A program made the position numbers and the translations under genes. Shown in pieces: positions 337 through 63,449 of a stretch of DNA of 64,000 nt. The stretch comes from Candidatus Falkowbacteria bacterium (GTDB lineage: Bacteria > Patescibacteriota > Patescibacteriia > Patescibacteriales > WJLG01): assembly GCA_963747695.1 (NCBI GenBank), contig CAVVFV010000008.1, positions 203,592 through 267,591 on the forward strand, read 5' to 3'. The notes under the pieces are model-generated. The model was not told where the DNA came from. It made no database searches and was given only the letters and a program-made list of their open reading frames with translations. The stretch's first letter is position 1. Each line of letters starts with the position of its first letter.

Positions 337-514
337 CAATTAATTTTTAAATTTTTGTAATTTTTAAAAAAATCATAATTTTTAATTTTTAATCCGGCTG
401 CAAATGGTTTTAAAAATTAGAAATTAAGACCTTAAAATTTTTTAAAAATTATAAAATTAAAAATTTCATATTGTGCTATAATAAAATTTATAATTCATAA
501 TTAATAATTTATAA
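337..514. repeat. AT-only word-repeat spacer (aattttt / ataaatt words, partly palindromic)
   Basis: Read directly; related AT-only words recur at 4862-4965, 12901-12929, 24751-24786, 27988-28031, 47781-47815, 50261-50292. Confidence 0.5.
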
Positions 515-874
515 TTGAACATGACAAGTATCCAAGAAGTCTTCGACCGTATCCAAAAAACCAGAAAAGAGCAGAAAGAATTAAAAGCAATGTATCGCGA
601 CGCCTTGAATAATTCCGGCGCTTATCAGCGCTCGCTGGAAGAATTGAAGAAATTAAAAGATGAAAAGCGGAAATACGAAGAGGGGATTAAGAAAGAATTT
701 TCTTCCGAATTCGATAAGCTGGAGATCTTAAAGAACGAATTGATGAATGACGGCCAGCTGCTTTCGGATATGGTGGTTTCCCAAGTTGCCAAGGGCCAGA
801 AGATTGAGATTCAGGACGAGTTCGAAACAAAATATGAGCCGATTTTTTCGGTCAGATTTAAGAAAATCGGCTAA
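515..874 (+). CDS. hypothetical K/E-rich coiled-coil protein (119 aa)
   Basis: Intact ORF followed by hairpin terminator; no recognisable motif. Confidence 0.45.
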   Translation: MNMTSIQEVFDRIQKTRKEQKELKAMYRDALNNSGAYQRSLEELKKLKDEKRKYEEGIKKEFSSEFDKLEILKNELMNDGQLLSDMVVSQVAKGQKIEIQDEFETKYEPIFSVRFKKIG

Positions 875-893
875 GATAAAGTAAAATAATACC

Positions 894-920
894 AAAACCG
901 CCAGAACAGGGCGGTTTTGT
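894..920 (+). terminator. rho-independent terminator candidate
   Basis: aaaaccgcc / ggcggtttt stem (894-902 / 910-918) 20 nt after the stop. Confidence 0.5.
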
Positions 921-921
921 G

Positions 922-950
922 TTGACAAAATATCTAAAATATGATAAGGT
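922..950 (+). promoter_or_regulatory. sigma70-like promoter candidate
   Basis: TTGACA 922-927, 17-nt spacer, TAAGGT 945-950, upstream of 1025 gene. Confidence 0.4.
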
Positions 951-1024
951 AGCCTGATTTTGTACATTCACATAATCTAGATATTATAACCCATCTTGGC
1001 TCAAGTCGGGCCGCTGGAGGAGAA

Positions 1025-1984
1025 ATGAAAACCTTTATTCTCGTTTGCAACGTGTTATTGCCGGTTTCTCTTTTGGTCGGCCTGATGCTCTGGATTTTCA
1101 GGCCGCAAATCGAGAAAGAATTTACGCTGGCGGGAGGAAAAGTTTTGATGAGAATTCTGAAAGATGCGATGCAACCCCGGCCTGTTGCCAGTACGCCGCA
1201 GGAGGACTCGCTGAAATTCCCGGTCAGGCAGATGTCTTTTGAGAACGATAATATTTTCGGAGAATATTCGGCCGCGGCAACACCGATCTGCCAGCCGGTG
1301 GTTTATCAGACCACGCCTGTCCCGGTTGCGGAAAAGGTTGCGGTGGTCAAGAAGACTGTCACCAAAAAGGGCAAGGCTCTGGGAATTCAGTTAAGAACGC
1401 CCAAGCTCGACCCTAAGACGGAAGAGCAGATTCAAACATCGGTTGACGCGGGAATTGCCAGGCTGCCGTTCATCATTGAGCACTTTGGCAAAATCGTGGA
1501 AGACACCTGCTCCCAGAAGGCGATTGATCCTGATTTGGAGTTCGCCAAGATCGCCGTTGAATCCCGCGGCTACATTAATGCGGTCAGCGATTCCGGGGCG
1601 ATGAGTCTGGAACAGTTGATGCTTAAAACCGGCCGGCACTTGTTGGCCTTGCGCGGAATTTACGTCAATGACGAAGAAGTGCTGAAAGTGATGCTGCGCG
1701 ATCCTTACCTGAATATTTCGCTGGGGACGGATCATTTTCTTATCAGTATGCAGTTGTTCAACGATCCGGTGAAAGCTCTGGTCGGCTATGAGGCCGGAGA
1801 CGATCACGTCTTGAGTCAAATCAGGAAATTCGGCGGAGACGTGGAAGTTCCGTACTATCGCAAGATTTACGGCATCTATGTTTGGCTTAAAGAGCATCCG
1901 GAGCTTAGACAAAATCGGGGATTGCCGATCGATCTCCGGATGAGAGCGCCAAGAGAGGCCATCCAAATGGCCGAAGTTCGCTAA
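1025..1984 (+). CDS. membrane-anchored protein with SLT-like lytic transglycosylase domain
   Basis: N-terminal TM helix; AKIAVESRGYINAVSDSGAMSLEQLM resembles the E-S...GLMQ core of SLT domains; GGAGGA SD upstream. Confidence 0.5.
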   Translation: MKTFILVCNVLLPVSLLVGLMLWIFRPQIEKEFTLAGGKVLMRILKDAMQPRPVASTPQEDSLKFPVRQMSFENDNIFGEYSAAATPICQPVVYQTTPVPVAEKVAVVKKTVTKKGKALGIQLRTPKLDPKTEEQIQTSVDAGIARLPFIIEHFGKIVEDTCSQKAIDPDLEFAKIAVESRGYINAVSDSGAMSLEQLMLKTGRHLLALRGIYVNDEEVLKVMLRDPYLNISLGTDHFLISMQLFNDPVKALVGYEAGDDHVLSQIRKFGGDVEVPYYRKIYGIYVWLKEHPELRQNRGLPIDLRMRAPREAIQMAEVR

Positions 1985-1990
1985 AAGTAC

Positions 1991-2022
1991 GCCCTGTTTA
2001 CTAACGTAAACGGGGCTTTTTT
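1991..2022 (+). terminator. rho-independent terminator
   Basis: ccctgtttac / gtaaacgggg stem followed by T6 (2017-2022). Confidence 0.7.
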
Positions 2023-2037
2023 GTTGTCTGTTTAGTA

Positions 2038-2066
2038 TTGACTTATTGTCAAAAATATGCTATTAT
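2038..2066 (+). promoter_or_regulatory. sigma70-like promoter candidate
   Basis: TTGACT 2038-2043, 17-nt spacer, TATTAT 2061-2066. Confidence 0.5.
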
Positions 2067-2996: not shown

Positions 2997-4862
2997 ATGA
3001 TAACCGCCCAAGAATTACGCCAAAAATATTTCCAATTTTTTCAGTCCAAGGGGCATAAATTGATTCCTTCGGCTTCTTTGCTTCCGGAAAATGATCCAAC
3101 TGTTTTATTCAATACCGCCGGTATGCAGCCGCTGGTTCCTTATCTGCTGGGCGAAACGCACCCGGAAGGCAAGCGGCTGGTTGACGCGCAGAAATGTTTG
3201 CGTACCGACGATATCGAAGAAGTCGGCGATACCACTCACCATACTTTTTTTGAAATGCTCGGCAATTGGTCGCTGGGCGATTATTTCAAGCAAGAAGCGA
3301 TCAATTGGAGTTGGGAATTTCTAACCGATCCGGCTTGGCTCGGATTGGATAAGAATCGCTTGGCCTGTTCGGTTTTTGCCGGCGATGCTGATGCCTCGTT
3401 CGACGCGGAAGCTCATGAAATTTGGAAAAAACTGGGGATGGATGAAAAACGGATCGCCCGACTGCCCAAAAAAAATAATTGGTGGGGGCCGGCCGGAGTT
3501 ACCGGACCCTGCGGCCCGTGTTCGGAAATGTTTTATTGGGTGGGAGATCCGAACCAGGTGCCCGCCGGCTTCAATGATGATAATCCGCTTTGGGTGGAAA
3601 TCTGGAACGATGTTTTTATGCAGTATAATAGGATAAACCGCGGCACTATCCCGCTTAGCGGGACCGCCCATCCGAATGAAAACAATAAAGGAGATTTCAC
3701 TTTTGAGCCGCTAAAACAAAACAATGTCGACACCGGCATGGGTTTGGAAAGAACGTTGGCCACTTTGAACGGGCTGGCTGATAATTATTTAACCGACGTT
3801 TGGACAGGCTTGATCGGCAAGATCGAAGAATTATCAGGTAAAAAATATTTCGAATCTGATGTGATTAAACGTCTAATGAGGATTGTCGCCGATCATATCA
3901 AAGCGGCGACTTTTATCATCGGCGATGAAAAAGGCGTTACCCCTTCAAATACCGGTGCCGGCTATATCGTCCGCCGGCTATTGCGGCGCGCCATAATTCA
4001 CGGCTATCGCTTGGGCATTAAGAAAGGCGGTTATTGGGTTTATCAGATCGCTGAAGTTGTGATCGGAATTTATCGTGAAGCTTATCCGGAATTAGCGAAG
4101 AATCAGGAATATATCAAGAAGAATATCGAAGCCGAGGAAGGGAAATTTGAAAAAACTTTGGAAAACGGGCTTAAAGAATTCAATGAACAATGCGATACTT
4201 TATTGTGCCGGATCGATGCCAATGCCGATTTGCACGTGACCATGCCGGGGGAAGTGGTCTTCAAGCTTTTTGCGACTTACGGTTTTCCCGTCGAGTTGAT
4301 CCGCGAGATCGCCCGGGAGAGAAAAATTGTCATTGACGAAGCGGGCTTCGCGGAAGAATTCAAAAAACACCAGGACCTTTCCCGCACCGCCGCCGCCGGA
4401 ATGTTCAAAGGCGGTTTGGCCGATGCTTCGGAAGAAACGAAAAAACTGCATACGGCCGCGCATCTTTTGCTGGCGGTTTTGCGGAAAGTTTTGGGCGACC
4501 AGATCTTCCAGAAGGGAAGCAACATCACTCCCGAACGTTTGCGATTTGATTTTTCTCATCCGGCTAAAATGACTCCGGAACAAATTGCCGAAGTGGAGCG
4601 ATTGGTCAATGAAGCGATCCAAAAAGATCTGCCGATCATCTGCGAAGAAAAACCTCTGGCGGAAGCGAAGGCCGAAGGCGCGATGGGAGTTTTCGAATCC
4701 AAATACGGCGAGAAAGTCAAAGTTTACAAAATGGGTGAAGTGTCGCAGGAGATTTGCGGTGGCCCGCATGCCTCACATACCGGAGAACTTGGCCATTTCA
4801 AGATTATTAAAGAAGAGAGTTCAAGTTCCGGAGTTAGGAGGATTAAGGCGGTTTTGGAGTGA
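2997..4862 (+). CDS. alaS: alanine--tRNA ligase, short form ending right after the editing domain
   Basis: FFQSKGHKLIPSASL, FNTAGMQP, WGPAGVTGPCGPCSEMF, editing-site HTAAHLL and CGGPH; ATG 2997 preferred over TTG 2973. Confidence 0.9.
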   Translation: MITAQELRQKYFQFFQSKGHKLIPSASLLPENDPTVLFNTAGMQPLVPYLLGETHPEGKRLVDAQKCLRTDDIEEVGDTTHHTFFEMLGNWSLGDYFKQEAINWSWEFLTDPAWLGLDKNRLACSVFAGDADASFDAEAHEIWKKLGMDEKRIARLPKKNNWWGPAGVTGPCGPCSEMFYWVGDPNQVPAGFNDDNPLWVEIWNDVFMQYNRINRGTIPLSGTAHPNENNKGDFTFEPLKQNNVDTGMGLERTLATLNGLADNYLTDVWTGLIGKIEELSGKKYFESDVIKRLMRIVADHIKAATFIIGDEKGVTPSNTGAGYIVRRLLRRAIIHGYRLGIKKGGYWVYQIAEVVIGIYREAYPELAKNQEYIKKNIEAEEGKFEKTLENGLKEFNEQCDTLLCRIDANADLHVTMPGEVVFKLFATYGFPVELIREIARERKIVIDEAGFAEEFKKHQDLSRTAAAGMFKGGLADASEETKKLHTAAHLLLAVLRKVLGDQIFQKGSNITPERLRFDFSHPAKMTPEQIAEVERLVNEAIQKDLPIICEEKPLAEAKAEGAMGVFESKYGEKVKVYKMGEVSQEICGGPHASHTGELGHFKIIKEESSSSGVRRIKAVLE

Positions 4863-4965
4863 AATTATAAATTATAAATTATTAATTATAAATCATCCCT
4901 TTTTTAATTTTATATTTAATATTCGCCAAAATAATTTATAATTTATAATTTATAATTAATAATTA
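4862..4965. repeat. AT-only word palindrome (ataaatt words)
   Basis: Left arm aaattataaattataaattattaattataaat, right arm ataatttataatttataatttataattaataatt. Confidence 0.6.
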
Positions 4966-5302: not shown

Positions 5303-5370
5303 TAAATTTTGAAAACAGTAAATTTTTTAGTGCATGTTTCATGTTCAATGTTTCATGCTCCATGAATATT

Positions 5371-5484: not shown

Positions 5485-5487
5485 ATA

Positions 5488-5576
5488 TTAGTTAATTGGT
5501 TAATTAGTTGATTAGGTACTCAGGAAGTACTTATCAGCAAGCCAACTAATTAACTAATTAACTAATCGACTAATAA
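5488..5576. repeat. word palindrome, taattag words
   Basis: ttagttaattggttaattagttgattag ... ccaactaattaactaattaactaatcgactaa; same word family at 39379-39531. Confidence 0.6.
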
Positions 5577-5584
5577 ACTATTCT

Positions 5585-5984: not shown

Positions 5985-6050
5985 TATACGAATTACGAAT
6001 CCGGACGAAATATACGAATTCGTATATTCGTAATAATTCGTAGTTCGTAG
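5985..6050. repeat. word palindrome, cgaatac/acgaatt words (B-like)
   Basis: Perfect core tatacgaattcgtata flanked by acgaat / attcgt words. Confidence 0.55.
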
Positions 6051-6692: not shown

Positions 6693-6751
6693 AATTTATT
6701 TGATAGCGGGAGAAAATTTTTTCTTATTAAAAAAGTTTAGTGCTAATCGAA

Positions 6752-6846
6752 ATTGTTATATTGTCATATTGTTATGTTGCTGCGCAACGTTCTGAACAGC
6801 TGAACAATATGTAACAATATAACAATATAACAGTATAGCAATATAG
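6752..6846. repeat. A-family word palindrome (caatata words)
   Basis: attgttatattgtcatattgttatgttgctgcgcaacg ... aacaatatgtaacaatataacaatataacagtatagcaatatag; ends 5 nt before rpsD ATG. Confidence 0.7.
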
Positions 6847-6851
6847 TTTTT

Positions 6852-7534: not shown

Positions 7535-7709
7535 AAATCCGAAGCACAAAATCCGAAATCCGAAACAAATCCCAAATCCTAAATTTAAAATCCGAAACAG
7601 CCGGAGTCCAGAAATTTATATCCCTTTTTTTGATAGTAACTTGTTTTGAATTTTGTGCTTAGAATTTTGAATTTGTTTAGGATTTCGTGCTTAGAATTTC
7701 GGATTTTAA
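7535..7709. repeat. word palindrome, aaatccgaa / cacaaaat words
   Basis: Left arm aaatccgaagcacaaaatccgaaatccgaaacaaatcc..., right arm ...ggatttcgtgcttagaatttcggattt. Confidence 0.65.
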
Positions 7710-7786
7710 AGATAATTACAATTAAGAAGTTATTTGTTAATTCAATCTTTATCAAAATACAAAATAAAAATTAATAATAAATATTT

Positions 7787-8599
7787 ATGGAATCAATCGC
7801 CAAGCCAAACAAAATAGAATTCCTTAAAGGTGAAAAGACTCACGAGATGATCGTTCACATCGAGCCTTTTTATCCCGGCTATGGTATGACCATCGGCAAT
7901 TCGCTGCGCCGCGTTTTGCTTTCTTCTTTGTTGGGAACTGCGGTCGTGGGCGTCAAGATCAACGGCGCCAGCCATGAATTCACCACTTTGCCTTACGTCA
8001 AGGAAGATATTTTGGAAATCATCATGAATTTGAAGCAATTGAAGCTGGCGATGTTCGAAGAGGATGAAATAAAATTAGAATTGGACGTGCACGGCAAGAA
8101 GGAAGTCAAGGCCGGCGATATCAAGAAAGACAGCCGGGTGGAAATAGTGAATCCTGATTTGGTCATTGCCAATATTACCGATATGGCTGGTTCATTATCG
8201 ATGGAGATTACGGTCGGCAAAGGCCGCGGCTATCGTCCGGTGGAAAGTATTGAAAAGAAGAATGGCGAAGTCGGTTTCATCGAAACTGATGCCTTCTTTT
8301 CCCCGGTTTTGGCTGTCGGTTTGAAAGTCGAAAATGTCCGCGTCGGCAAAATGACCAACTGGGACAAATTGATCATCGATATCACCACTGACGGGACGAT
8401 TTCCCCGGAAAAGGCTTTTAAAGATTCGGTTCGGGTTTTGCAAGAGCAGGTTAGCGCTCTGGTCGGCGAAGAAGCGCCGGCGCTGGCCGAAGAAGCCAAG
8501 GCGGAAGAGTCAGTCGAGGAAGCTGAAAAAGATTCCGCGGCAGCCGAAAAGAAAACCAAGAAAGAAAAGAAACCCAAGAAAGAAAAGAAAGCTAAATAA
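7787..8599 (+). CDS. rpoA: RNA polymerase alpha subunit, N-terminal domain only, with K/E/A low-complexity tail
   Basis: PFYPGYGMTIGNSLRRVLLSSLLG and downstream NTD; 270 aa; last ~45 aa are EEAKAEESVEEAEK...KKEKKPKKEKKAK. Confidence 0.85.
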   Translation: MESIAKPNKIEFLKGEKTHEMIVHIEPFYPGYGMTIGNSLRRVLLSSLLGTAVVGVKINGASHEFTTLPYVKEDILEIIMNLKQLKLAMFEEDEIKLELDVHGKKEVKAGDIKKDSRVEIVNPDLVIANITDMAGSLSMEITVGKGRGYRPVESIEKKNGEVGFIETDAFFSPVLAVGLKVENVRVGKMTNWDKLIIDITTDGTISPEKAFKDSVRVLQEQVSALVGEEAPALAEEAKAEESVEEAEKDSAAAEKKTKKEKKPKKEKKAK

Positions 8600-8648
8600 T
8601 ATTGTTTTAAAAACAGGGATTAGATACGAAATAAATGTTGAAGTAGAA

Positions 8649-8700
8649 AATTCGCGTTTTTCGCGGCATTCGCATTCATTCGTAGATTCGCATCATATAT
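8649..8700. repeat. B'-family half element
   Basis: aattcgcgtttttcgcggcattcgcattcattcgtagattcgcatcatatat runs into rplQ ATG; near-identical copy at 37033-37089. Confidence 0.65.
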
Positions 8701-9051: not shown

Positions 9052-9068
9052 AAGATAAATTTGGTTAT

Positions 9069-9186
9069 ATAATACGAATACCACGAATTATACGCGAATA
9101 CTACGAACGGCAAACGGAAACGAATAATTCGTTAAATAGTTCGCGGTATCGCGAAAAATTAGTAGTATTCGCATCATGATATTTAT
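9069..9186. repeat. B-family ~120-bp palindromic element
   Basis: aatacgaataccacgaatt...cgcgaatactacgaa ... ttcgcggtatcgcgaaaaattagtagtattcgcatcat; homologous to 34863-34980 and 51541-51659. Confidence 0.75.
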
Positions 9187-9534: not shown

Positions 9535-9610
9535 ATTTTGATAAATTCTATAATCCAAATCTAAAAAAATTCGTGGATTTGGATGAATTTGTAGATTAGG
9601 ATTATATTTT

Positions 9611-10099: not shown

Positions 10100-10122
10100 T
10101 CCTATACTTAGTTTACGTATTC

Positions 10123-10153: not shown

Positions 10154-10155
10154 GT

Positions 10156-10163: not shown

Positions 10164-10173
10164 ATAACCACCT

Positions 10174-11119: not shown

Positions 11120-11126
11120 TTTGGGA

Positions 11127-12854: not shown

Positions 12855-12929
12855 AACTCTTTCAATTTTCGTAAATTTTTGCTAAAGTTATAGAATAATA
12901 CAATTTTTAATTTTTAACTTTTAATTGAC

Positions 12930-13736: not shown

Positions 13737-13831
13737 TATTCAATATCAAATAATAAATAACCAAAAAATATTTAAATATTAAAATATTATATTATTGTTT
13801 TGAGTATTGGATATTGGTTATTTGATATTTG
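13737..13831. repeat. word palindrome, aataaataacc / atattaaa words
   Basis: caaataataaataaccaa ... ttggttatttgatatttg; sister copy 38871-38965. Confidence 0.65.
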
Positions 13832-14961: not shown

Positions 14962-15088
14962 TTTGTCATCCTGAGGCCTCTGGCTGAAGGATCTGATGCT
15001 TCCTGCGATAGAAATAGTTTGATATAAAATAATGCATGTGCGTTTCATGGAAGGATCGGATCCTTCGCGCGGCGCTCAGGATGACAAA
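14962..15088. repeat. long-range palindromic spacer element
   Basis: tttgtcatcctgag (14962-14975) pairs with ctcaggatgacaaa (15075-15088); inner palindrome ggaaggatcggatccttc. Confidence 0.6.
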
Positions 15089-16620: not shown

Positions 16621-16678
16621 CCGAGTCTTGTCAATAGGAAATTTTTGACGAAAAAGGTATAATTTTAGTAGCAAGCAA

Positions 16679-16735
16679 TATGTAGTACGCAGTACGGTCT
16701 AAACCCATACTTCATACTACATACCCCATACTACA
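16679..16735. repeat. word palindrome, gtagtac/catact words
   Basis: atgtagtacgcagtacgg ... ccatacttcatactacat, ends at the GTG start 16738. Confidence 0.5.
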
Positions 16736-16737
16736 AA

Positions 16738-33001: not shown

Positions 33002-33093
33002 TTGCTATACTGTTATATTGCTATATTGTTAGGCAGCGAGAAAAATTTTTTTGCAAAATAACAATATGACAATATAGCAATATAACAATATGT
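33001..33093. repeat. A-family word palindrome
   Basis: attgctatactgttatattgctatattgtt ... aacaatatgacaatatagcaatataacaatatg; ends 4 nt before murJ ATG. Confidence 0.7.
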
Positions 33094-34771: not shown

Positions 34772-34862
34772 AAATTACTAATCATCCATTAATAAAGGGC
34801 ATCTTGAAAAAGTGCCTTTTTTATTGATTGACCTTTAGTAAAAAAAACCGTAGTATAATAAT

Positions 34863-34980
34863 ATGATGCGAATACTACGAATTGTTCGCGAATACTACAA
34901 ATTAATTTAACGAATTAATATAGAATAATTCGATAAATAGTTCGCTGTATTCGCGAAAAATTTGTAGTATTCGCATTATG
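34863..34980. repeat. B-family ~120-bp palindromic element
   Basis: atgatgcgaatactacgaattgttcgcgaatactac ... gtattcgcgaaaaatttgtagtattcgcattat; 7 nt before lepA ATG. Confidence 0.8.
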
Positions 34981-34987
34981 TTTATTT

Positions 34988-36780: not shown

Positions 36781-36890
36781 AATCCGAACCCACAAAATAT
36801 CGCGAATACTACGAACATGATAACGAATTGATAAGTTCGGTTCGATAAAAGTTCGCAGTATTAGCGCATATAATTCGTAGTATTCGGATT
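36781..36890. repeat. B-family variant element
   Basis: aatccgaa...cgcgaatactacgaac ... ttcgtagtattcggatt. Confidence 0.6.
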
Positions 36891-36903
36891 ATATTATAAT
36901 AAT

Positions 36904-37008
36904 ATGATCAAGAGAAAAACAATAGTCAAAGTCGTTTGGATTTTCATCTCTTTCATGGTTATCTTTTCCATGGTCGCCTGGACCGTAGGAACTTCATTTA
37001 CGAGATAA
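36904..37008 (+). CDS. possible 34-aa membrane peptide
   Basis: Own translation MIKRKTIVKVVWIFISFMVIFSMVAWTVGTSFTR; sits between two B-family elements. Confidence 0.25.
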   Translation: MIKRKTIVKVVWIFISFMVIFSMVAWTVGTSFTR

Positions 37009-37032
37009 AATTTGCTGATGAGAATAAATTAT

Positions 37033-37089
37033 ATTCGATTCGCGGTTTTCGCGGCATTCGCATAAATTCGCAGATTCGCATCATATTTT
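37033..37089. repeat. B'-family half element
   Basis: attcgattcgcggttttcgcggcattcgcataaattcgcagattcgcatcatatttt runs into recJ ATG; twin of 8649-8700. Confidence 0.65.
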
Positions 37090-38870: not shown

Positions 38871-38965
38871 AATATCCAATAATAAATAACCAATATTAAA
38901 AAAATATTAAAATATTTTAATATTAAAATATTTTTTGGATATTTTTTATTTGATATTTATTTGTT
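38871..38965. repeat. word palindrome, sister of 13737-13831
   Basis: aaatatccaataataaataaccaatattaaa ... ttggatattttttatttgatatttatttg. Confidence 0.65.
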
Positions 38966-39387
38966 ATGATTCAAAAAAAACAAAAACTTATTATTTATAC
39001 TGATGGCGGCGCGCGGGGAAATCCGGGTCCGGCGGCGATTGGCGCGGTTTTAAAGGACGAGAAAGGGGAGCTAGTCGCGGAAATTTCCGAGTATATCGGC
39101 GAGACCACTAATAATCAAGCCGAATATCGGGCGGTGGTTGCGGCCATGGAAAAAGCTAAGAAACTTGGCGCCGAGGAATTGCAATTTTTTTTGGACAGCG
39201 AATTAGTGGTTAAGCAGCTTAACCGCGAATACAAAGTCCGCGATAAAGAACTGGCGCCGTTTTTCATGAAAATATATAATGCCGCGATGGGATTTAAGAA
39301 AGTAACCTTCAAACATATTCGCCGGGAACTTAATGCGGAAGCGGAAGGTTGGTGAATGAAGCGCTGGATAATAAAAAAGTTAATTAG
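38966..39387 (+). CDS. rnhA: ribonuclease HI; 1-nt gap near the 3' end as assembled
   Basis: IYTDGGARGNPGPAAIG, TNNQAEYRA, DSELVV. Conserved EADRLVNEAL tail is readable only after a 1-nt deletion at ~39345, and then stops at TAG 39385-39387. Confidence 0.8.
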
Positions 39388-39531
39388 TCGATTGGTTAAT
39401 TAGTTAATTGGTTGTAAAATATTCAATTTCTCAATATAAAAAAACCGTCAGCCTGTATTGTGCCGATGGTTTTTTATATTGATAAATTATTAACTCTTAA
39501 ACTAATTAACCAATCGACTAGTCAACCAATC
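39379..39531. repeat. word palindrome (taattag words) enclosing a bidirectional terminator
   Basis: Arms gttaattagtcgattggttaattagttaattggttg / aactaattaaccaatcgactagtcaaccaatc; central hairpin aaaaaaaccgtcagc...gccgatggttttt (39438-39476). Confidence 0.65.
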
Positions 39532-40450
39532 ATATTTTTCGATATTCTTGTCCGCCAAGCTCTTGGATATATTCGATTTCTTTTTTCCCCTCCTCGCCTT
39601 TGAACAGATGCTTGAAGCGGGCCTGGATTTTCAGATATTCTTCGACTTTGATCGGAGTTTGAATTTTAGAAACGTTAACGAGCTGGCCGTCGACATATTC
39701 CAGAAGGGGATAAAGGCCGGTTTGCACTGCCAATTTTGCGACTTGCATCGCGTCGGAAGTTTTGATGCCAAAGCCGGGAATGCAGGGTGACATTATCTGG
39801 ATATATCCCGGTCCCTGGGTTTCAATGCCTTTTCTGACTTTGGCGGTAATATCCAAAGGGTAGCCGGCGGTGGATTGGGCGATATATTTTACGCCGTGCG
39901 CTAAGGCGATGGCGAGCATATCTTTTTTGCGTTGGGTTGAACCGATCGAGGCCGAACCGGCCGGAGTCGTCGTAGTGGAAGCGCCGGGCGGCGTGGCGCC
40001 GGAAGCCTGAACGCCGGTATTGGAATAAACTTCCGTATCGTAGCAAATATATAAAATATTTTCGCCCCTTTCCCACATCCCCGAAATCAAGCCAAAGCCG
40101 ATATCAAAAGTCGAGCCGTCGCCTCCCTGGACGATGACCTTGGTATTCCGTAGGTCCGCAATACTTTGCGGACCAGTCGGTTTGCCCGCAAGGTATTGCG
40201 GGCCTACGGATTTTATTTTGAAATTCAAAGCGGCTCGGATGCCGCTCGCGACCGCGGCGGGATTTTCGAACAAAGAATGGATCCAGGGAATTTTCCAGGC
40301 CGATTCCGGGTAAGGAGTGGTGGTCACTTCCAAACAGCCGGTGGCGTTGGCGATAATCACATCCGGGCCCATCGCCCGGGAAGCGGCTATGGCCGCGATC
40401 ATCTGCCCGCAGCCGGCGCAGGCGCGGTGGCCCGGAGCGATTAAGCACAT
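39530..40450 (-). CDS. porB: pyruvate/2-oxoacid:ferredoxin oxidoreductase, beta (TPP-binding) subunit
   Basis: APGHRACAGCG, QGGDGSTFDIGF, CYDTEVYSNTG; the start may lie further upstream (see findings). Confidence 0.85.
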   Translation of the reverse strand: MCLIAPGHRACAGCGQMIAAIAASRAMGPDVIIANATGCLEVTTTPYPESAWKIPWIHSLFENPAAVASGIRAALNFKIKSVGPQYLAGKPTGPQSIADLRNTKVIVQGGDGSTFDIGFGLISGMWERGENILYICYDTEVYSNTGVQASGATPPGASTTTTPAGSASIGSTQRKKDMLAIALAHGVKYIAQSTAGYPLDITAKVRKGIETQGPGYIQIMSPCIPGFGIKTSDAMQVAKLAVQTGLYPLLEYVDGQLVNVSKIQTPIKVEEYLKIQARFKHLFKGEEGKKEIEYIQELGGQEYRKI

Positions 40451-41901: not shown

Positions 41902-41910
41902 AAAATTTAT

Positions 41911-42019
41911 ATTGTTATATTGTTGAGTTACAAAAAATTATTTCATTGAAATAAATTTTTTACTAAAAAGCTTAAAATCGTTGCGTAGCAATATAACAAT
42001 ATAGCAATATGACAATATT
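41911..42019. repeat. A-family word palindrome (left arm truncated)
   Basis: attgttatattgtt ... cgttgcgtagcaatataacaatatagcaatatgacaatat. Confidence 0.65.
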
Positions 42020-43228: not shown

Positions 43229-43328
43229 ATATTGCTATATTGTCATATTGTTATATTGTAGCGCTACGTTTTTACAACTTTTCTACATTTTCTCGTTGCG
43301 TAGCAATATAACAATATAGCAATATGAC
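43229..43328. repeat. A-family word palindrome (intercistronic porD-porA)
   Basis: atattgctatattgtcatattgttatattgtagcgc ... cgttgcgtagcaatataacaatatagcaatatgac. Confidence 0.75.
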
Positions 43329-43620: not shown

Positions 43621-43694
43621 TAATGATTAATGATAGATGATAAATGATAAATTTTGATTAATTTTTTAATCTATCATTAATCATTTATCATTTA
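43621..43694. repeat. word palindrome, tgataaatga words (intercistronic porG-porD)
   Basis: taatgattaatgatagatgataaatgataaa ... taatctatcattaatcatttatcattt. Confidence 0.65.
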
Positions 43695-44260: not shown

Positions 44261-44360
44261 ATATTGTCAGATTGCTATATTGTTATATTGTTGTGAGACG
44301 CAAATTAACGGTTAATTTTTTTTCGTTGCGCGACAATATAACAATATGTCAATATAGCAA
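44261..44360. repeat. A-family word palindrome
   Basis: atattgtcagattgctatattgttatattgttg ... cgttgcgcgacaatataacaatatgtcaatatagcaat. Confidence 0.75.
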
Positions 44361-44369
44361 TTCGATTGG

Positions 44370-45206: not shown

Positions 45207-45276
45207 ATTGTTATATTGCTAAATTGTCATATTGTTGTGATCTGACTTAGCAATATAACAATATGGCAATATAACA
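45207..45276. repeat. A-family word palindrome
   Basis: attgttatattgctaaattgtcatattgttg ... ttagcaatataacaatatggcaatataacaATG (abuts xth start). Confidence 0.7.
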
Positions 45277-46095
45277 ATGAAATTAATATCTTGGAACGTC
45301 AACGGCATCAGGGCCGCGGTTAAAAAAGGCTTTGTCGATTTTTTGCAAAACGAAAGGCCGGATATCTTGTGTTTGCAGGAAATCAAGATTTCCGATTCAG
45401 CTAAGCGCGAAGAAGTTTTTGATTTTGCCGGTTACCAGGAATTTTGGCATTCGGCCGTCAAGCCGGGGTATGCCGGGACGATGACCTTAGTTAGGGATAA
45501 TTTAATCAGTGAAACGGCCGTAACACACCCCGTCTCGCGAGGCGCGAGCCACCCCTCTCGAGAGGGGAATAAATTTATCGGGCTCGTGGAATTTCCCGAT
45601 GATCCGGAAGGCCGGGTGCAGATTTTGGAATTCGAGAAATTTTATTTGTGCAACATCTATTTTGTCAACGCCCAGCGCGGTTTGACCAGGCTGAAACATA
45701 AAATGGAATGGGAGGATCGCCTGTTGAAGTTCTTGAAAAAATTGGATAAGAAAAAATCGCTGGTCATTTGCGGCGATTATAATGTCGCTCACGAGGAAAT
45801 CGATATCGCCCGTCCCAAAGAGAATAAAAAAAATGCCGGTTTCACCCCGGAGGAGCGGGCCTGGATGACTAAATTTCTTAAAGCCGGTTTCGTCGACGTC
45901 TTCCGTAACCAGCATCCGGACAAGATCCAATATAGTTGGTGGACTTTTTATGCCAATGCCCGGGCCCGCAACATCGGCTGGCGCATTGACTATTTTTGCG
46001 TTTCAGCGTATCTTGTTAAGTCAGTCAAAAGTTCTTTTATAATGGATCAAGTCCAGGGATCGGACCATTGTCCGGTCGGCGTCATTTTAAAATAA
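45277..46095 (+). CDS. xth: exodeoxyribonuclease III with a 17-codon repeat-element insertion
   Basis: SWNVNGIRA, LCLQEIK, EGRV, CGDYNVAH, WRIDYF, GSDHCPV. Confidence 0.9.
   Translation: MKLISWNVNGIRAAVKKGFVDFLQNERPDILCLQEIKISDSAKREEVFDFAGYQEFWHSAVKPGYAGTMTLVRDNLISETAVTHPVSRGASHPSREGNKFIGLVEFPDDPEGRVQILEFEKFYLCNIYFVNAQRGLTRLKHKMEWEDRLLKFLKKLDKKKSLVICGDYNVAHEEIDIARPKENKKNAGFTPEERAWMTKFLKAGFVDVFRNQHPDKIQYSWWTFYANARARNIGWRIDYFCVSAYLVKSVKSSFIMDQVQGSDHCPVGVILK
45520..45570 (+). repeat. K'-type GC-rich element inserted in frame in xth
   Basis: gtaacacaccccgtctcgcgaggcgcgagccacccctctcgagaggggaat; nearly the reverse complement of intergenic 24430-24481. Confidence 0.85.
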
Positions 46096-50298: not shown

Positions 50299-51537
50299 AT
50301 GTTCCGTTCCATCAATCTTAAAGGCCGGCTGTCCGGCGGTTTGGTTGCCATTTATTCCTCGCGGATGATTTTGAATATCGGCTCTTCGCTGATGGGTCTC
50401 TTTCTGCCGATTTTTTTATTTCAGGTTTTCGGTTCCAAGTTGAGCTATACGCTGATTTATTTTCTCATCTATTACTCTTCTTATTTTTTCTTGGTGGCTG
50501 TGGGCGCCAAATTTTCGCTCAATCGAGCCGGGATAAAATGGGCCATCATCATCAGTACGATCTTCGGCGCCGTTTACTTCGTCATCCTTTATTTCATCAC
50601 CGGTCCGCGGGGGATGATCGAAACGGCGGCCGGGATGAATCACACCAGCGTTTTGATCTTTTTGGGCATTTCGATTATGTTCACGGCGCTGCAGGATCTG
50701 ACCTATTGGGTTCCGGTGCATACCGAGATGTCCAAGTTCACCGATCGAGCGAACCGCGCTAAACAATTATCCTTTCTCGAGTCGAGTTCGATCGCCTTCA
50801 ATGCGATCGGCCCGCTTTTTGCCGGCTGGATTTTGTTGACTTCCGGCTACAATATCCTCTTTGCCATCACGGTTTTTATTACTATCCTTTCGATCGTGCC
50901 GCTGTTCTATCTGCCTCCGACTGAAGAAAGGTTCAGCTGGACTTACCGGGAGACCTGGAAAGAATTATTTTCCAAAAAAAGGCAGAAAGCCGTCCTGGCC
51001 TTTATGGGCGATGGCGCCGAGAATGTCGTTTCCGGCATCGTCTGGCCGATTTTTATCTGGGAAATCCTCAAGGGAAATTATTTTTCGGTTGGCGCGATTT
51101 CGTCCCTGATAGTTTTATCGACGATTATTTTGGAATTGCTGGTCGGCAAATACGCCGACTCGGCGCGGCGCGGCAAAATTCTGCACTGGGGAACGGTTCT
51201 CTATGCCCTGGGCTGGCTGATTAAGATTTTTATCGACACGGCTTTCCAGATTTTCATCGTCAGCACTTATCATAACCTGGTCCGCCTTTTTACCCGCACG
51301 CCGTTCGACACCTTGCTTTATGAGCACGCCGCCGACCAGGGGCATTATGTCGATGAATATACCGTGATCCATGAAATGGCCTTGATGATCGGCCGGATCC
51401 TGATCATCCTGCTGATCTTGATTCTGGTGCCGCTGTTCGGGATCGGCACGACTTTTATTTTGGCGGCTATCGCGACCCTGTTAATGAATTTTTTGGTCGA
51501 CGAAAAAACCGTTCAGGAAATCAAAGCGAGAATATAA
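50299..51537 (+). CDS. MFS-type transporter
   Basis: About 12 hydrophobic spans in 6+6 arrangement with a central charged loop; ATG 50299 preferred over TTG 50293. Confidence 0.6.
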   Translation: MFRSINLKGRLSGGLVAIYSSRMILNIGSSLMGLFLPIFLFQVFGSKLSYTLIYFLIYYSSYFFLVAVGAKFSLNRAGIKWAIIISTIFGAVYFVILYFITGPRGMIETAAGMNHTSVLIFLGISIMFTALQDLTYWVPVHTEMSKFTDRANRAKQLSFLESSSIAFNAIGPLFAGWILLTSGYNILFAITVFITILSIVPLFYLPPTEERFSWTYRETWKELFSKKRQKAVLAFMGDGAENVVSGIVWPIFIWEILKGNYFSVGAISSLIVLSTIILELLVGKYADSARRGKILHWGTVLYALGWLIKIFIDTAFQIFIVSTYHNLVRLFTRTPFDTLLYEHAADQGHYVDEYTVIHEMALMIGRILIILLILILVPLFGIGTTFILAAIATLLMNFLVDEKTVQEIKARI

Positions 51538-51540
51538 ACT

Positions 51541-51659
51541 TGATGCGAATACTACAAATTTTGCGCGAATACCGCGAATAAATTAACGAATTATCTAAAA
51601 ATAATTCGCTAAATAGTTCGTAGTATTCGCGAACAATTCGTAGGTTCGCATCATATTTT
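51541..51659. repeat. B-family ~120-bp palindromic element
   Basis: tgatgcgaatactacaaattttgcgcgaataccgcgaat ... ttcgtagtattcgcgaacaattcgtaggttcgcatcatatttt runs into rsmA ATG. Confidence 0.8.
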
Positions 51660-52508
51660 ATGGATTTATTGGAAAGGACAAAGGAGATTTGTAAACTTTA
51701 TGATATCTGGCCTTCGCGCTCCAAGGGACAGAATTTTTTAGTTTCCGAAAGCGTCTATGATAAAATCGTCGCCGCAGCCGGTTTAACCAAGGATGATACG
51801 GTTTTGGAAGTCGGCCCGGGTTTGGGATTCCTGACCGCCGAATTGGCAAAGGCTGCCAAGCAAGTGATCGCTGTCGAGCTTGACGATAAACTCGCTGCTT
51901 ATTTAAAAGATGCTTTACAAGCCAATGAGGTTGATAATGTCGAGGTGGTTAACGAAAATATTTTGGATTTAGATTTTAAAAATATACGAAATACGAAATA
52001 CGAAATACGAAATACTAATTTTAAGATCGTTGCCAACCTTCCTTATAATATAACCTCGGTTTTTCTTAGAAAATTTCTCTCCAATGAGCCGCGTCCGGAA
52101 TCGATGGTTTTGCTGCTGCAGAAAGAAGTGGCCGAGCGCATTTGCGCCCAGCCCGGCGATATGTCTTTGTTGGCTCTGTCGGTGCAATTTTATGCTGAGC
52201 CGGAAATCATCGATTTTGTGCCGAATCATGATTTTTGGCCGGCGCCGAAAGTGGACTCAGCTATCATTAAGATAAAAGTTAAGAGAGAAGAGAGAAGAGA
52301 TGCTGACGAGAAGGATTTCTTCCGTTTGGCGAAGTTCGGGTTTTCGGCACGGCGCAAGATGCTCAAGAATAATCTGGCCGGCGGCTTGCATATCAAGCCA
52401 GCCGAGGCGGAAGCGATCTTGGTCAAAGCCGGTTTTAATCCCAAGATCAGGGCGGAAGATTTAGGGGTCGGGGATTGGGAAAGGATTATCAAATTGTTAT
52501 ATTGTTAA
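51660..52508 (+). CDS. rsmA: 16S rRNA (adenine1518/1519-N6)-dimethyltransferase
   Basis: SKGQNFL, VLEVGPGLGFLT (SAM motif I), ANLPYNITS. Confidence 0.9.
   Translation: MDLLERTKEICKLYDIWPSRSKGQNFLVSESVYDKIVAAAGLTKDDTVLEVGPGLGFLTAELAKAAKQVIAVELDDKLAAYLKDALQANEVDNVEVVNENILDLDFKNIRNTKYEIRNTNFKIVANLPYNITSVFLRKFLSNEPRPESMVLLLQKEVAERICAQPGDMSLLALSVQFYAEPEIIDFVPNHDFWPAPKVDSAIIKIKVKREERRDADEKDFFRLAKFGFSARRKMLKNNLAGGLHIKPAEAEAILVKAGFNPKIRAEDLGVGDWERIIKLLYC
51984..52015 (+). repeat. tandem heptanucleotide repeat (atacgaa x4.6) inside rsmA
   Basis: atacgaaatacgaaatacgaaatacgaaatac read directly; encodes IRNTKYEIRNT. Confidence 0.9.
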
Positions 52509-52580
52509 ATTGCTATATTGTTGCGCAACGAGATATTTTTTTCGTAGCACAACAATATAACAATATAGCAGTATAGCAAT
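52493..52580. repeat. A-family word palindrome overlapping the rsmA 3' end
   Basis: attgttatattgttaaattgctatattgttgcgcaacg ... cgtagcacaacaatataacaatatagcagtatagcaat; the last rsmA codons (LLYC-stop) lie in the left arm. Confidence 0.7.
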
Positions 52581-52650
52581 AAGATGATTATTGTTTTTTT
52601 TCGCCTAAATATGTTATAATTATGGACAAAGAAGATAAGCGGACTTTCGC

Positions 52651-61300: not shown

Positions 61301-61663
61301 CCTGAATAAATATAATAAAGGCGAAAATGACGGTGACGGCTACCGCACCCTGCCGACGTTATTCTGTGATGATACGAAATGCACCGTCAAGCCGCGAGTA
61401 AAAATAGTTGATAACTGGGGTTGGTGTTCGGAAGGAATAAATGGCAAATCTTGTCCGGTTATCAATATCACTGATCCGATTAATGGTGCGGGGTATTGTA
61501 TGAATTCAGCGGGAGATTACTATAGAACCGGTTCAGCGTTGCTGGAGCGATAACACCACGGGAATTACATCCCGGTAAAACCTGCACTGCTAATCCGTCC
61601 TATCCTTATTGTGATGATGGCTGGTATGAATCAGGCGGGCAGATAGTCATCTACAAACAATAA
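58293..61663 (+). CDS. giant cysteine-rich surface protein, segment 2, with the true C-terminus in the -1 frame after ~61532
   Basis: CBM-like module ending VYVDDFEITPV (58848-59435); PKD-like YSIDWGDGTS...HAYDY (~61075-61300); tail SVAGAITPRELHPGKTCTANPSYPYCDDGWYESGGQIVIYKQ ends TAA 61661-61663. Confidence 0.7.
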
Positions 61664-61725
61664 AAATAAAACCATAATTGATATTATGGCTTTTATTGAA
61701 TATTAGCCGAAATATTAATATTTTA

Positions 61726-61754
61726 TTGACCTTGGGATGAAAATATGCTATTAT
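61726..61754 (+). promoter_or_regulatory. sigma70-like promoter with extended -10
   Basis: TTGACC 61726-61731, 17-nt spacer ending TGc, TATTAT 61749-61754. Confidence 0.5.
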
Positions 61755-61842
61755 TATGACAGCAATTTATACCCCAAAAAGGTATAAAACGCACCTTGAA
61801 AAGTGAGAAGGAAAAAAAGTTTCAATTTAAAAAGGGAGGAAA

Positions 61843-63011
61843 ATGAAAAAGTATTAGTCACTCTGTTGTTGCTGGTCGCTTTCGCGGCCACGTCGTCGGC
61901 GATTGATTTATCAACCTGGCATGTTTTGAATATTCCGGGCACGGGCAGTTTGGGCGGCTCATACATTAAGAAAACCCAGATGGCACGGCATAATTGTCTG
62001 ACGCTGGAATGCTATCGATGCGTCGACCGGAAATTGCGCTAATCGGCAAAATTCCGGTTATGGGCGTTACGGTAAGGGACGTGGATTGGGACAGTCATAA
62101 AAATATTTGGGGTGCGACCAGCAATGGTTTGGTGCGTGTCGGTCTCAATGACACATCCACTTATCTGACCGCGGACGGAATGCCCAGCAATTATCCGTGC
62201 GAACGATCGAGTGCGATTCCGCTAATAATCGTTTAATCATCGGATCGACTGATAACGGTATGGCGATCATCAAACAGGACGCATCCGGCAAGCCCCTTTC
62301 GTTTCAGAATGTTTTTGCCGGGCAGGGTATCCAAAAAGTGGGAACCTATGTCCAGGAAATTTGGGGCGTAAACACGATGCGGGTTTATCATTATGATGGA
62401 TCGAACTGGATCACTTATGACACGGGCAGTTCAACTATCAGATTCCCGTTTGGCGCTTTTGTCGCCAAGAAACGGGAACGCCTATGTCGGAAGCGATAGT
62501 CGCGGTTAACGGTTATATCGCCGTTTTTGATCATCAATCCGGTTTGTGGAGCAAAATTATTCCTGACTCCGGCGTCACCCACGGCTCGACTATTCCCAGT
62601 CTCGTAGTGGACAACCAGAACGCGCTTTGGTTTACGTGTGCGAAATATCTGGTGCGGATTGATTTGACCACGATGAAAAACGAACGGATTCCGCTCGACG
62701 GCAGTGTTGTTCCTTGTCTGAATAACACGATCATGGGGTCAGTTGATCCTGTGCTCGGCCTTACCGACGATGGCAATCTGCTGATTGCGGCCTATGCTGC
62801 GATCGTCGAAGTTAAAAGCTCTAATGCTGTCCTATGGCATCCGACGCTTGCGCCGAAAGTCGCCCGCGGCAGTTTCCAGATCATCGGTCAGATCAACCCC
62901 TTGGGCCGAATGATCAAATCCTTCTCACCGAATTCGGTTTCCGGAGTCAGCTTTACGCTGATCCGGACAGCCGAAGGAATGAAGGCGGTCAAAACGCTTA
63001 TCGCTCGATAA
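61843..63011 (+). pseudogene. exported beta-propeller-like repeat protein, at least 4 frame breaks as assembled
   Basis: ATG 61843 behind SD agggagg; signal peptide MKK-VLVTLLLLVAFAATSSA needs one more A in A5 61846-61850; track pieces 61803-62042, 61994-62236, 62197-62499 and 62484-63011 concatenate; NIWGATSNGLVRV-type blades. Confidence 0.6.
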
Positions 63012-63030
63012 GCCTCCGCCAAATTGTACG

Positions 63031-63067
63031 GAGCCCAGACACATCGTGTCCGGGCTCTCTTTTTTTA
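63031..63067 (+). terminator. rho-independent terminator
   Basis: gagcccagacac / gtgtccgggctc stem + T-run. Confidence 0.8.
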
Positions 63068-63123
63068 CATAGAACATGGATCATGGAGCATAGAGCAAGG
63101 ATCAAGGATCATCAAACAACCGG

Positions 63124-63217
63124 TTTGGCTATGGCAGAGTCTCTCGCTTCGGGGACTCTGCCGGATTTGGCGAGTTCGGCGGTATAGTCCGCTTCGCGAG
63201 ACTCTGCCGAGGCCAAA
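63124..63217. repeat. GC-rich nested hairpin unit, homologous to 26751-26836
   Basis: tttggctatggcagagtctc..ggactctgcc ... gactctgccgaggccaaa; flanked by word arms catagaacatgg... (63068-63112) / ...ctatgttctatg (63235-63264). Confidence 0.75.
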
Positions 63218-63384
63218 AAGCATTTTTTTTGTCACGTTCTATGCTCTTTGCTCTATGTTCTATGCCCTTTTTCCCTATTCATTTTTTTTATCGATTATGT
63301 TATAATTAGGGCAGTAAAATGTGCAGGTAACTACCCGTTTTTTTTGGTATTTATCGCGCCATTTTTCCGATTTTTTTATCTTCG

Positions 63385-63449
63385 GTAGGAACGCAATACT
63401 TTGCGTTCCGCCGATCGAACCGATTGAACGCGAAGTATCGCGTTCCTAC
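63385..63449. repeat. double-hairpin palindrome (ggaacgc words)
   Basis: gtaggaacgcaatactttgcgttcc ... gaacgcgaagtatcgcgttcctac. Confidence 0.6.

Follow-up and report, generated by a model that had tools for sequence, protein, structure and literature searches.

The 64-kb stretch analysed here (the window) belongs to a genome of the candidate phyla radiation (CPR; Patescibacteria) close to Candidatus Falkowbacteria, and about half of its intergenic spacers hold long imperfect hairpins, in many of which one arm is built of three to five tandem degenerate words of 7–8 nt and the other of their complements. As genes of the PF05635 family were found between inverted arrays of the cognate words in relatives and in metagenomic contigs, we regard these word palindromes, on balance, as miniature insertion elements of a small foldback class that lack the open reading frame (ORF). 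They would derive from the ORF-bearing units or be mobilized like them, and are best read neither as one mobile element nor as products of purely local generation. The whole is best described as a real, abundant and lineage-patchy repeat system comprising several foldback families which resemble the intervening sequences (IVSs) of rRNA genes and which, in the window, are mostly ORF-less.

Results

PF05635 genes lie between inverted word arrays

In the rpoA–rplQ spacer of a relative (locus L013), a PF05635 (23S_rRNA_IVP) gene was located between inverted TTAATTAG arrays. PF05635/TIGR02436 is the family to which the ORFs in 23S rRNA IVSs belong, and it is related to the Avd protein of diversity-generating retroelements. 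All eight PF05635 ORFs detected with a local HMM in the loci first gathered were flanked by inverted word arrays, and the same was true of 8/8 homologues picked solely by protein similarity and length of contig, independently of their flanks. Homologues of the first clade (clade A) number more than 5000 at 70–80% identity, those named coming from Parcubacteria, Pacebacteria, Andersenbacteria and Bacteroidota; a second clade (clade T) had TTAATTAG-type flanks in three of three independent contexts. Altogether, the 20 PF05635 genes with readable flanks were all situated between inverted word arrays, in operon spacers and co-oriented with their neighbours, at host sites that included murE–mraY and a type IV secretion operon carrying three copies. 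A further related contig (P0131), whose flanking DNA was not read, has PF05635 genes in spacers of the por operon that hold palindromes of family A (ATTGYTAT words) in the window, among them the porD–porA spacer. A sequence search of the PDB with a clade A protein gave no match.

Counting of words in the flanks separated the clades. Those of clade A (nine genes, 62–86% identical) contained ATTGYYAW three to eight times and neither TWATTAG nor AATTTYC, those of clade T (four genes) TWATTAG three to six times, ATTGYYAW 0–1 times and no AATTTYC, and those of clade F (three genes) AATTTYC four to ten times, ATTGYYAW 0–1 times and no TWATTAG. In this near block-diagonal arrangement the word follows the protein clade, with ATTGYTAW, TTAATTAG and AATTTYC belonging to one clade each, and the words of clades A and T are those of family A and of the ‘taattag’ palindromes of the window. 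One clade word recurs beside the genes of its clade at non-orthologous sites in different phyla. In the orthologous TraC–VirB4 spacer of two loci the arms are the same and the centre differs, being a gene in L205 and a GC-rich palindrome in L202, and one conserved element has its arms one word out of register in both orthologues. The association of the same word with the same clade, the swapped centre and the oriented tip of family A (see below) lead us to interpret the many words as many families of a single element class.

Hairpins as additions to short spacers

RpoA of the window had its best match (82% identity) in a species representative, L002, which is the closest relative; the remaining matches were mostly metagenome-assembled genomes (MAGs) of Falkowbacteria. 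Pfam annotation of the window yielded alaS, infA and rpmJ, then the rpsM–rpsK–rpsD–rpoA–rplQ–rplM–rpsI operon, which closes with a canonical terminator, and further prfA, comEC, acs, murJ, lepA, recJ (as three ORFs), rnhA, the por operon (minus strand), a split leuS and rsmA. When the window was scanned for Rfam families and tRNAs nothing matched, and it contains no rRNA.

The spacers of the ribosomal-protein operon measure 76–302 nt in the window versus medians of 11–45 nt in relatives; the rpsD–rpoA spacer, for instance, has 302 nt against a median of 45 nt. Across five spacers of this operon in about 80 genomes, hairpin-free spacers had a median of 21 nt (n = 340) and hairpin-bearing ones a median of 115 nt, of which 21 nt lay outside the hairpin (n = 29). 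The hairpins have thus been added as separate pieces to ancestral spacers some 20 nt long.

Survey of the window spacers

A preliminary description of the window, made from its letters alone, had listed ten palindromic loci, and long imperfect hairpins were recovered at all of them by inverted-repeat search and folding. Its statement that nearly every spacer is a word palindrome proved too strong. When the 46 window spacers of at least 40 nt were subjected to a gapped inverted-repeat search scored against shuffles, z exceeded 5.5 in 21 and lay between 3.5 and 5.5 in seven more, two of these being plain terminators. Sorted by type, the 46 spacers comprise about 17 with word palindromes, six with the complex hairpin called family B and three to five with GC-rich palindromes, the rest having an unpaired array only (three), a canonical terminator only (about 10) or nothing (five), and it is this sorting that makes the claimed coverage an overstatement. 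The right arm stops 0–9 nt before a start codon in about 12 of 20 cases.

Of 12 elements folded as RNA and scored against dinucleotide shuffles, nine had z values between −3.6 and −11; the ‘ggaacgc’ element had −9.0, the element at 38871 −2.4 and that at 7535, of which a 146-nt piece was folded, −1.8. Arm periodicity, tested by shuffling (p ≤ 0.01), was significant with period 7 for AAATTAT, GTAGTAC and AATGATA (the true unit of what had been given as ‘tgataaatga’), weakly so for AAATCCG, and with period 8 for TTAATTAG (both ‘taattag’ sites) and the ATTGYTAT words of family A. It was not significant for ‘gtcatcctgag’, ‘ggaacgc’, the GGCAGAGTC hairpins and family B. The tandem-word architecture thus holds for six cases (‘aaatccgaa’ weakly), but ‘gtcatcctgag’ and ‘ggaacgc’, which are without tandem words, are GC-rich or nested palindromes of other families, and ‘aataaataacc’ is no tandem 11-mer but a dispersed family with two copies. 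Likewise, the description of the words as locus-specific fits several that occur once only in the 64 kb, but not family A (seven copies), family B (three full and about four partial copies) or ‘taattag’ and ‘aataaataacc’ (two copies each).

That some arms extend into coding ends was confirmed for rsmA, the last codons of which (I I K L L Y C stop, 52485–52508) are family A words, and for rpmJ, within which a left arm begins at about 5486. A third such case, the rnhA tail KKVN-stop, is readable, but only once a frameshift at a GCGGAA tandem repeat is repaired: rnhA (39330–39385) ends early at a TGA, and after the repeat the other frame runs ...RLVNEALDNKKVN-stop, a typical RNase HI tail, the restored stop falling in the first TTAATTAG word.

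Generality of word arrays

Tandem arrays were called with Tandem Repeats Finder on the window and on the rpoA regions of relatives (80 loci; 137 kb of the total being non-coding), and a scan for two and a half family A words provided at least 120 metagenomic contigs. The related and metagenomic DNA examined came to about 2 Mb, and array numbers in it had a sharp maximum at periods 7 and 8. In the window and the 80 loci, non-coding arrays of periods 6, 7, 8, 9 and 10 numbered 16, 125, 61, 37 and 14, respectively. The window has at least 10 distinct words, and 103 occur in the window plus the 80 loci; the metagenomic contigs held 206 other 7/8-nt words, and about one-third of the family A arrays there were paired. 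A reverse-complement partner within 200 nt was present for 82 of 186 arrays versus 10 of 186 for shuffled arrays; the arrays and their inverted pairing exceed chance. Pairs of same-word arrays less than 100 nt apart were inverted in 64 cases and direct in seven, whereas at distances of 250 nt or more 64 were inverted and 88 direct. Above five units the number of arrays fell steeply, from 46 to 12 at period 7 and from 38 to 15 at period 8 (all loci), and a drop at the same count with both periods indicates a limit on unit number rather than on length in nucleotides.

The trait is patchy, since about half of 81 related loci had no 7/8-nt arrays, and the occupied spacers differ among genomes. The same spacer may carry different words in different genomes, one word also occurs in different spacers, and hairpins are found in many MAGs from different studies. 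The frequency of hairpins did not differ between co-directional, convergent and divergent spacers, the numbers being too small, nor did the use of Shine–Dalgarno sequences differ behind hairpins, most window genes lacking one: such a sequence was recognizable in only about 10 of 60 window genes, mainly first genes behind promoters, and the others have an AT-rich stretch immediately 5′ of the start codon.

Arrays were also met in other surroundings. In one related locus (L003, 523–1227) word palindromes of TTCGAAW and GTGCGAA words lie between three tRNA genes. Elsewhere, whole ordinary genes are bracketed by inverted arrays (L132, 51–1058; L128, 1535–2550; L061, 3113–3782; L002, 7440–8020), these being a comF-like gene, a membrane protein gene, rpmJ–rpsM (L061) and infA–rpmJ (L002). 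The terminal repeat in L132 is compound, of about 70 nt, and contains two different words.

Family A and family B

Six of the seven family A copies keep the non-word tip GCGCAACGA, which was on the 5′ side relative to transcription in six of six (three with plus-strand and three with minus-strand gene neighbours). Three consecutive family A words were absent from the loci of all 80 relatives, and the family appears, from its copies, to have proliferated within this genome. On the plus strand, the copy at 6745..6849 (ATTGYTAT 8-mers, tip GCGCAACG) lies in the rpsK–rpsD spacer and ends 2 nt short of the ATG; that at 33001..33091 (folding z −7.3) begins at the stop codon and takes up the whole spacer except for the 7 nt next to the murJ ATG; that at 45207..45278, without the GC tip, ends on the start codon of an exonuclease-family gene; and the left arm of that at 52485..52588 is formed by the last eight codons of rsmA (IIKLLYC-stop). 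Three minus-strand copies accompany the por operon, at 41907..42018 (3′ of porA, with the tip oriented to transcription as in the plus-strand copies), 43229..43325 (porD–porA spacer) and 44263..44361 (5′ of porG). Just 5′ of the copy at 45207, in a divergent spacer, there is a 46-codon ORF (45052–45192, MAIANHDYLEVQALKK...) which had no Pfam match. Family A words were also considered as promoters and rejected, only weak 9/12 matches being seen.

The hairpin of family B, about 125 nt long, is complex and has an ortholog in L002. Its full copies, all on the plus strand, are found at 9066..9181 (z 9.7; rplQ–rplM spacer; the copy with the L002 ortholog), at 34857..34986 (z 21.2) and at 51534..51661 (z 11.5, folding z −8.7), the last extending exactly from the stop codon of a major facilitator superfamily (MFS) gene to the rsmA ATG. 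As a canonical terminator and a TTGACC-17-TATAAT promoter precede the copy at 34857, this copy constitutes the entire 5′ leader of lepA. Among the plus-strand partial copies, a right half alone (8650..8700, TTCGCR words) terminates ...GCATCATATAT beside the rplQ ATG, and at 36799..37089 a left arm (36799–36889) in the coding end of lepA is combined with a right half (37038–37089) by the next ATG; several right halves end ...GCATCATAT beside an ATG. A short family-B-like palindrome with TACGAAT words (5987..6049, plus strand, z 3.8) is located in the rpsM–rpsK spacer.

Other elements of the window

The remaining word palindromes are, unless stated otherwise, on the plus strand. TAATTTT/AAAAATT 7-mers form the palindrome at 346..463 (arms 346–393 and 416–463; z 9.6), which lies 3′ of a uvrD-like gene and has an ortholog in L002. 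AAATTAT 7-mers form that at 4862..4965 (z 11.4, folding z −4.4), beginning at the alaS stop and followed by the infA promoter. The TTAATTAG 8-mers at 5486..5578 (folding z −7.3), in the rpmJ–rpsM spacer with the left arm starting within rpmJ, repeat the flanking word of the clade T genes found outside the window. The same word builds the palindrome at 39374..39539 (folding z −11.1; no strand assigned), which is placed between convergent genes, overlaps both gene ends with its arms and carries a canonical bidirectional terminator at its tip. Degenerate AAATCCG 7-mers lie in the rpsD–rpoA spacer (7535..7709, z 9.8), GTAGTAC/GTAGTAT 7-mers at 16665..16737 (folding z −4.3; ortholog in L002) reach the next start codon, and AATGATA 7-mers at 43622..43694 (minus strand, folding z −4.7) lie in the porG–porD spacer. 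At 63075..63265, CATGGAT/CATAGAG 7-mers enclose a GC-rich double hairpin of the GGCAGAGTC family, the whole having previously been called as ORFs.

Palindromes of other kinds, likewise on the plus strand, are a short AT-rich one without significant arm periodicity in the rplM–rpsI spacer (9549..9606, z 6.4), the two ‘aataaataacc’ copies at 13742..13829 (loop-less, folding z −3.6) and 38878..38957 (the element at 38871 above), and two that are not word-built, namely the GC-rich GTCATCCTGAG...CTCAGGATGAC at 14962..15088 (folding z −7.5) and the GC-rich nested one at 63385..63449 (GGAACGC...). The element at 14962 belongs to a separate family which resembles in style the GTCATTGCGAG...CTCGCAATGAC element of L202. 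Unpaired plus-strand arrays occur at 485..516 (AATTTAT, 4.6 units, reaching the start codon of the next gene) and at 12902..12926 (AATTTTT, just 5′ of a start codon), and further ones at 5333–5357, 24752–24784, 27995–28026, 47783–47814 and 50263–50294.

GC-rich paired hairpins recur at 26752–26960, at 63120–63225 and in the rpsK–rpsD spacer of the related locus L023, as GGCAGAGTC...GACTCTGCC and GTCGCAGTC...GACTGCGAC, some of them nested centrally within a word palindrome. A pair of non-coding blocks, each about 330 nt long (24426–24760 and 30723–31065) and 80% identical to one another, contain several GC-rich hairpins each, e.g. CCTCTCGAGAGGGG and CCCGCC...GGCGGG, and neither had an Rfam match; one is 5′ of an acs-like gene and the other 3′ of an acetate-CoA ligase gene.

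Turnover of words

The hairpin 3′ of comEC (16665..16737) is orthologous in the window and L002 and differs in unit number. Base 7 of its word is A in both arms in L002, and in the window is C in both left-arm words and T in all four right-arm words; given this difference between the window arms, homogenization within an arm proceeds faster than matching from arm to arm. In only three of the spacers compared between the window and L002 was a similar hairpin kept.

Heptamer arrays also occur within coding sequence. In rsmA (51984–52015) a perfect ATACGAA array of 4.6 units encodes the variable linker NIRNTKYEIRNTN, and others were located at 42447–42476, 47686–47712, 49283–49309 and 52281–52300. 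The leuS gene (47640–47900) is split into two ORFs: a T5 run lacks one T, an AATTATA array carries a surplus unit, and a conserved segment between the two is out of frame. Removal of one heptamer and addition of one T restored LeuRS with the linker length as expected, so the split is either a recent disruption or the result of two assembly errors; an exact look-up of the truncated N-terminal LeuS product found it not to be on record. The recJ region (37090–38870) was called as three overlapping ORFs (DHH, DHHA1 and RecJ_OB), implying two frameshifts. Loss of RecJ-type exonucleases in Escherichia coli raises tandem-repeat and quasipalindrome rearrangements, and the recJ split, if real, could bear on the rearrangement of arrays.

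An independent Logan contig (L001) is identical to the window over 6.1 kb (7677–13785), and for this reason is uninformative on turnover. It begins in the right arm of the palindrome at 7535 and ends exactly at the centre of that at 13742–13829; with both ends inside palindromes, it indicates that these structures break short-read assemblies.

Discussion

A model of foldback insertions and its weak points

A full-length unit measures about 450–480 bp and consists of a left array of three to five tandem 7–8-nt words, a PF05635/TIGR02436 four-helix-bundle gene and an inverted complementary array. In the window the centre is reduced to a short tip, and in other cases a terminator or a GC-rich hairpin element takes its place. 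The spread of units may result from recognition of their arrays, either by the protein that goes with them or by a host enzyme specific for the structure; the arms are then remodelled by slippage through gain and loss of whole words. In the mRNA of an operon the two arrays could pair to form an AU-rich stem of 25–40 bp that loops out the insertion and leaves about 20 nt from stop to start, as in the hairpin-free relatives. By analogy with rRNA IVSs the stem is probably cut by RNase III, which would make an insertion nearly harmless and allow copies to accumulate.

PF05635/TIGR02436 four-helix-bundle proteins have been reported as homopentamers. A more specific version of the model, which we advance only tentatively and hold to be doubtful, is that every PF05635 protein recognizes the array peculiar to its clade, of no more than five tandem words, and so brings about the spread of units, the excision of RNA, or the two together. 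The units would then represent a new, transposase-less class of ‘intercistronic IVS’, common in CPR and Bacteroidota, with the window palindromes as miniature non-autonomous derivatives.

Several observations count against an origin of the palindromes as foldback insertions. The 64-kb window itself contains no PF05635 gene, only two of its at least 10 words have so far been paired with a protein clade, and the tip of family A bore no likeness by eye to the ends of PF05635 ORFs and is not recognizably ORF-derived. No target-site duplication was found, none being visible in the comparison of L202 with L205 either, nor was any filled-versus-empty polymorphism seen at short evolutionary distance, and Pfam annotation of the window ORFs revealed no known transposase, no RAYT and no Nop-domain gene. 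It was the search with the family A word that first led to clade A; the later sample was independent of flanks. In four of 19 scored cases the flanking inverted repeat was at or barely above the best shuffle, so that there the claim rests on the clade-specific word. Stem mismatches on the sense strand showed no bias of G-U over A-C (76 versus 95), and the sequences therefore give no evidence of selection on an RNA stem.

Alternative explanations

The preliminary description was right on the architecture, and right that the palindromes are not copies of one mobile element: at least 10 words in the window, 103 with the related loci and 206 in metagenomic contigs share one design. It had inferred a generative mechanism rather than the spread of a mobile element, a dichotomy that is wrong. 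Purely local generation, in which slippage by 7–8 nt and intrastrand, hairpin-templated template switching build each palindrome and no element moves, seems to us unlikely. A process acting on whole words is itself visible, as orthologous hairpins differ in unit number and base changes are arm-wide and confined to one arm; unpaired arrays exist, arrays occur in coding linkers, leuS has an extra AATTATA unit, and several words appear once only in the window. RecJ suppresses rearrangements of this kind in E. coli, and its gene in the window is broken up into three ORFs. A passage in PMC4692102, citing Mrazek (2007), ascribes the over-representation of heptamer tandem repeats in some bacteria to polymerase slippage. 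Local events, however, leave unexplained why identical words stand by the same PF05635 clade at non-orthologous sites in different phyla, why the non-word tip of family A is oriented and the 125-nt family B present in three copies, and why constant arms enclose a swapped centre. Hairpin-templated repair in particular is without direct support, as homogenization within arms outruns correction between them and the one-word register offset, kept in both orthologues, argues against efficient templating.

Selection by the host of RNA elements such as mRNA stabilizers, processing sites or attenuators, comparable to E. coli REP/BIME sequences or to the sites at which RNase III cuts the early mRNA of phage T7, would make the words a by-product and the PF05635 genes passengers. 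The hairpins in transcribed spacers of the ribosomal-protein operon would suit this, as would right arms within 9 nt of start codons, the orientation of family A with transcription, the palindromes between tRNA genes in L003 and the inverted arrays around whole genes (rpmJ–rpsM in L061, infA–rpmJ in L002, and L132). We nevertheless judge it quite improbable in view of the patchiness of the trait (about half of the related genomes are without it and have orthologous spacers of 1–25 nt), the low retention between the window and L002 (three compared spacers with a similar hairpin), stems without G-U bias and the unchanged use of Shine–Dalgarno sequences. Very improbable is a role of the arrays in tuning translation initiation as sites bound by a protein with general affinity for single-stranded nucleic acids, such as a cold-shock protein or S1. 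This idea was proposed for the TAACTGA heptamer repeats of Beggiatoaceae, and the paper on these notes that CspB binds one heptamer per protein (PMC4679880). Unpaired arrays do end at or a few nucleotides from start codons and most genes have no Shine–Dalgarno sequence, but more than 100 words argue against a single specificity, the overwhelmingly inverted close pairs would hide the single strand, and left arms adjoin stop rather than start codons. Ordinary intrinsic terminators, or foldback chimeras arising in assembly, can scarcely account for the hairpins at all. The palindrome at 4862–4965 is the sole terminator candidate for alaS, that at 39374–39539 has a terminator at its tip, and independent contigs break within palindromes. 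Yet a separate canonical set with GC-rich stem and T tract exists in the genome, most word hairpins being AT-rich, without a T tract and inside operons, and the hairpins are imperfect and looped, identical in the independent Logan assembly and present in many MAGs from different studies.

If the palindromes are, as we prefer, ORF-less foldback insertions, gene-less copies can occupy at least one-third of a small genome's spacers, and would account for spacers in some CPR ribosomal-protein operons that are 5–10 times longer than those of relatives. Assemblies break at the centres of the palindromes, and false ORFs are called in them, which matters for the annotation of MAGs. The concrete pairing of protein and word can now be tested; a cultured model may be offered by Flavobacterium columnare, which has a four-helix-bundle gene in its gmk–nadD interval, with about 35 nt on its flanks (PMC5524665).

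Comparison with known systems

A search of the open-access literature found no description of PF05635 genes with terminal repeats made of tandem words, nor of elements of this kind in mRNA spacers of CPR. Drosophila Foldback (FB) elements are eukaryotic, kilobase-sized and have a transposase implicated in them, and their terminal inverted repeats are made of short tandem subrepeats. They share with the units described here long inverted repeats built of subrepeats, a centre that is variable or absent, and copies with and without a coding centre, although the likeness is architectural only. TIGR-Tas arrays have tandem units of about 36 nt with two spacers beside a Nop-domain Tas gene, and were ruled out, the units here being of 7–8 nt and dispersed, and no Tas-like gene having been found. 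The class of intrinsic terminators was also rejected, as word hairpins are AT-rich and lie in operons and the canonical terminators form a separate set, the exception at 39374–39539 enclosing one.

Repetitive extragenic palindromic (REP) sequences and bacterial interspersed mosaic elements (BIMEs), the REPINs associated with RAYT proteins, and miniature inverted-repeat transposable elements (MITEs) are, like the present repeats, multi-copy extragenic palindromes in operons, some over gene ends, with lineage-specific amplification (cf. families A and B). The window, however, has no conserved REP head, no RAYT or insertion sequence (IS) transposase was seen among its ORFs, no target-site duplication was found, the arms are tandem-repetitive and the centres interchangeable, and the partner that would be ‘autonomous’ in MITE terms carries PF05635 and not a known transposase. 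Membership in these groups is unsupported for lack of a transposase or target duplication. The heptamer repeats known as cyanobacterial STRR (short tandemly repeated repetitive) sequences, as GGGAATC in Xanthomonas and Nostoc and as TAACTGA in Beggiatoaceae also have 7-nt tandem units, mostly intergenic and often by start codons, with lengths that vary between close relatives and occasional inverted pairs (PMC4692102, PMC4679880). They comprise one or few words, in contrast to more than 100 here (at least 10 in 64 kb), and here period 8 is as prominent as period 7, close pairs are about 9:1 inverted, and the arrays rarely exceed five units and are linked to one gene family.

The rRNA IVSs are the closest relatives in kind, although the location that defines them fails. 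They are bounded by a stem and cut by RNase III, some contain an S23p ORF, and they occur sporadically and are suspected to be mobile (PMC4990558). In CPR, rRNA genes have 23S_rRNA_IVP ORFs as well as short insertions devoid of an ORF at known IVS sites (bioRxiv 10.1101/2024.02.27.582315). Where IVSs and their S23p/four-helix-bundle ORFs come from and what they do has been an open question since about 1990 (PMC4990558). In common with the IVSs of Salmonella, Leptospira, Coxiella and CPR, the elements described here form an extended stem-loop with inverted repeats, and the loop may contain an ORF belonging to the same protein family, an S23p/PF05635 ORF in this position having been found in relatives and metagenomic contigs. 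They further share ORF-less forms of about 100 nt, a transcribed, essential host unit, a sporadic distribution and a suspected selfish or mobile nature (PMC4990558; 10.1101/2024.02.27.582315). They differ in sitting in mRNA spacers between protein genes, not in a helix of 23S or 16S rRNA, and in being bounded by tandem arrays of 7–8-nt words that co-vary with the clade of the protein.

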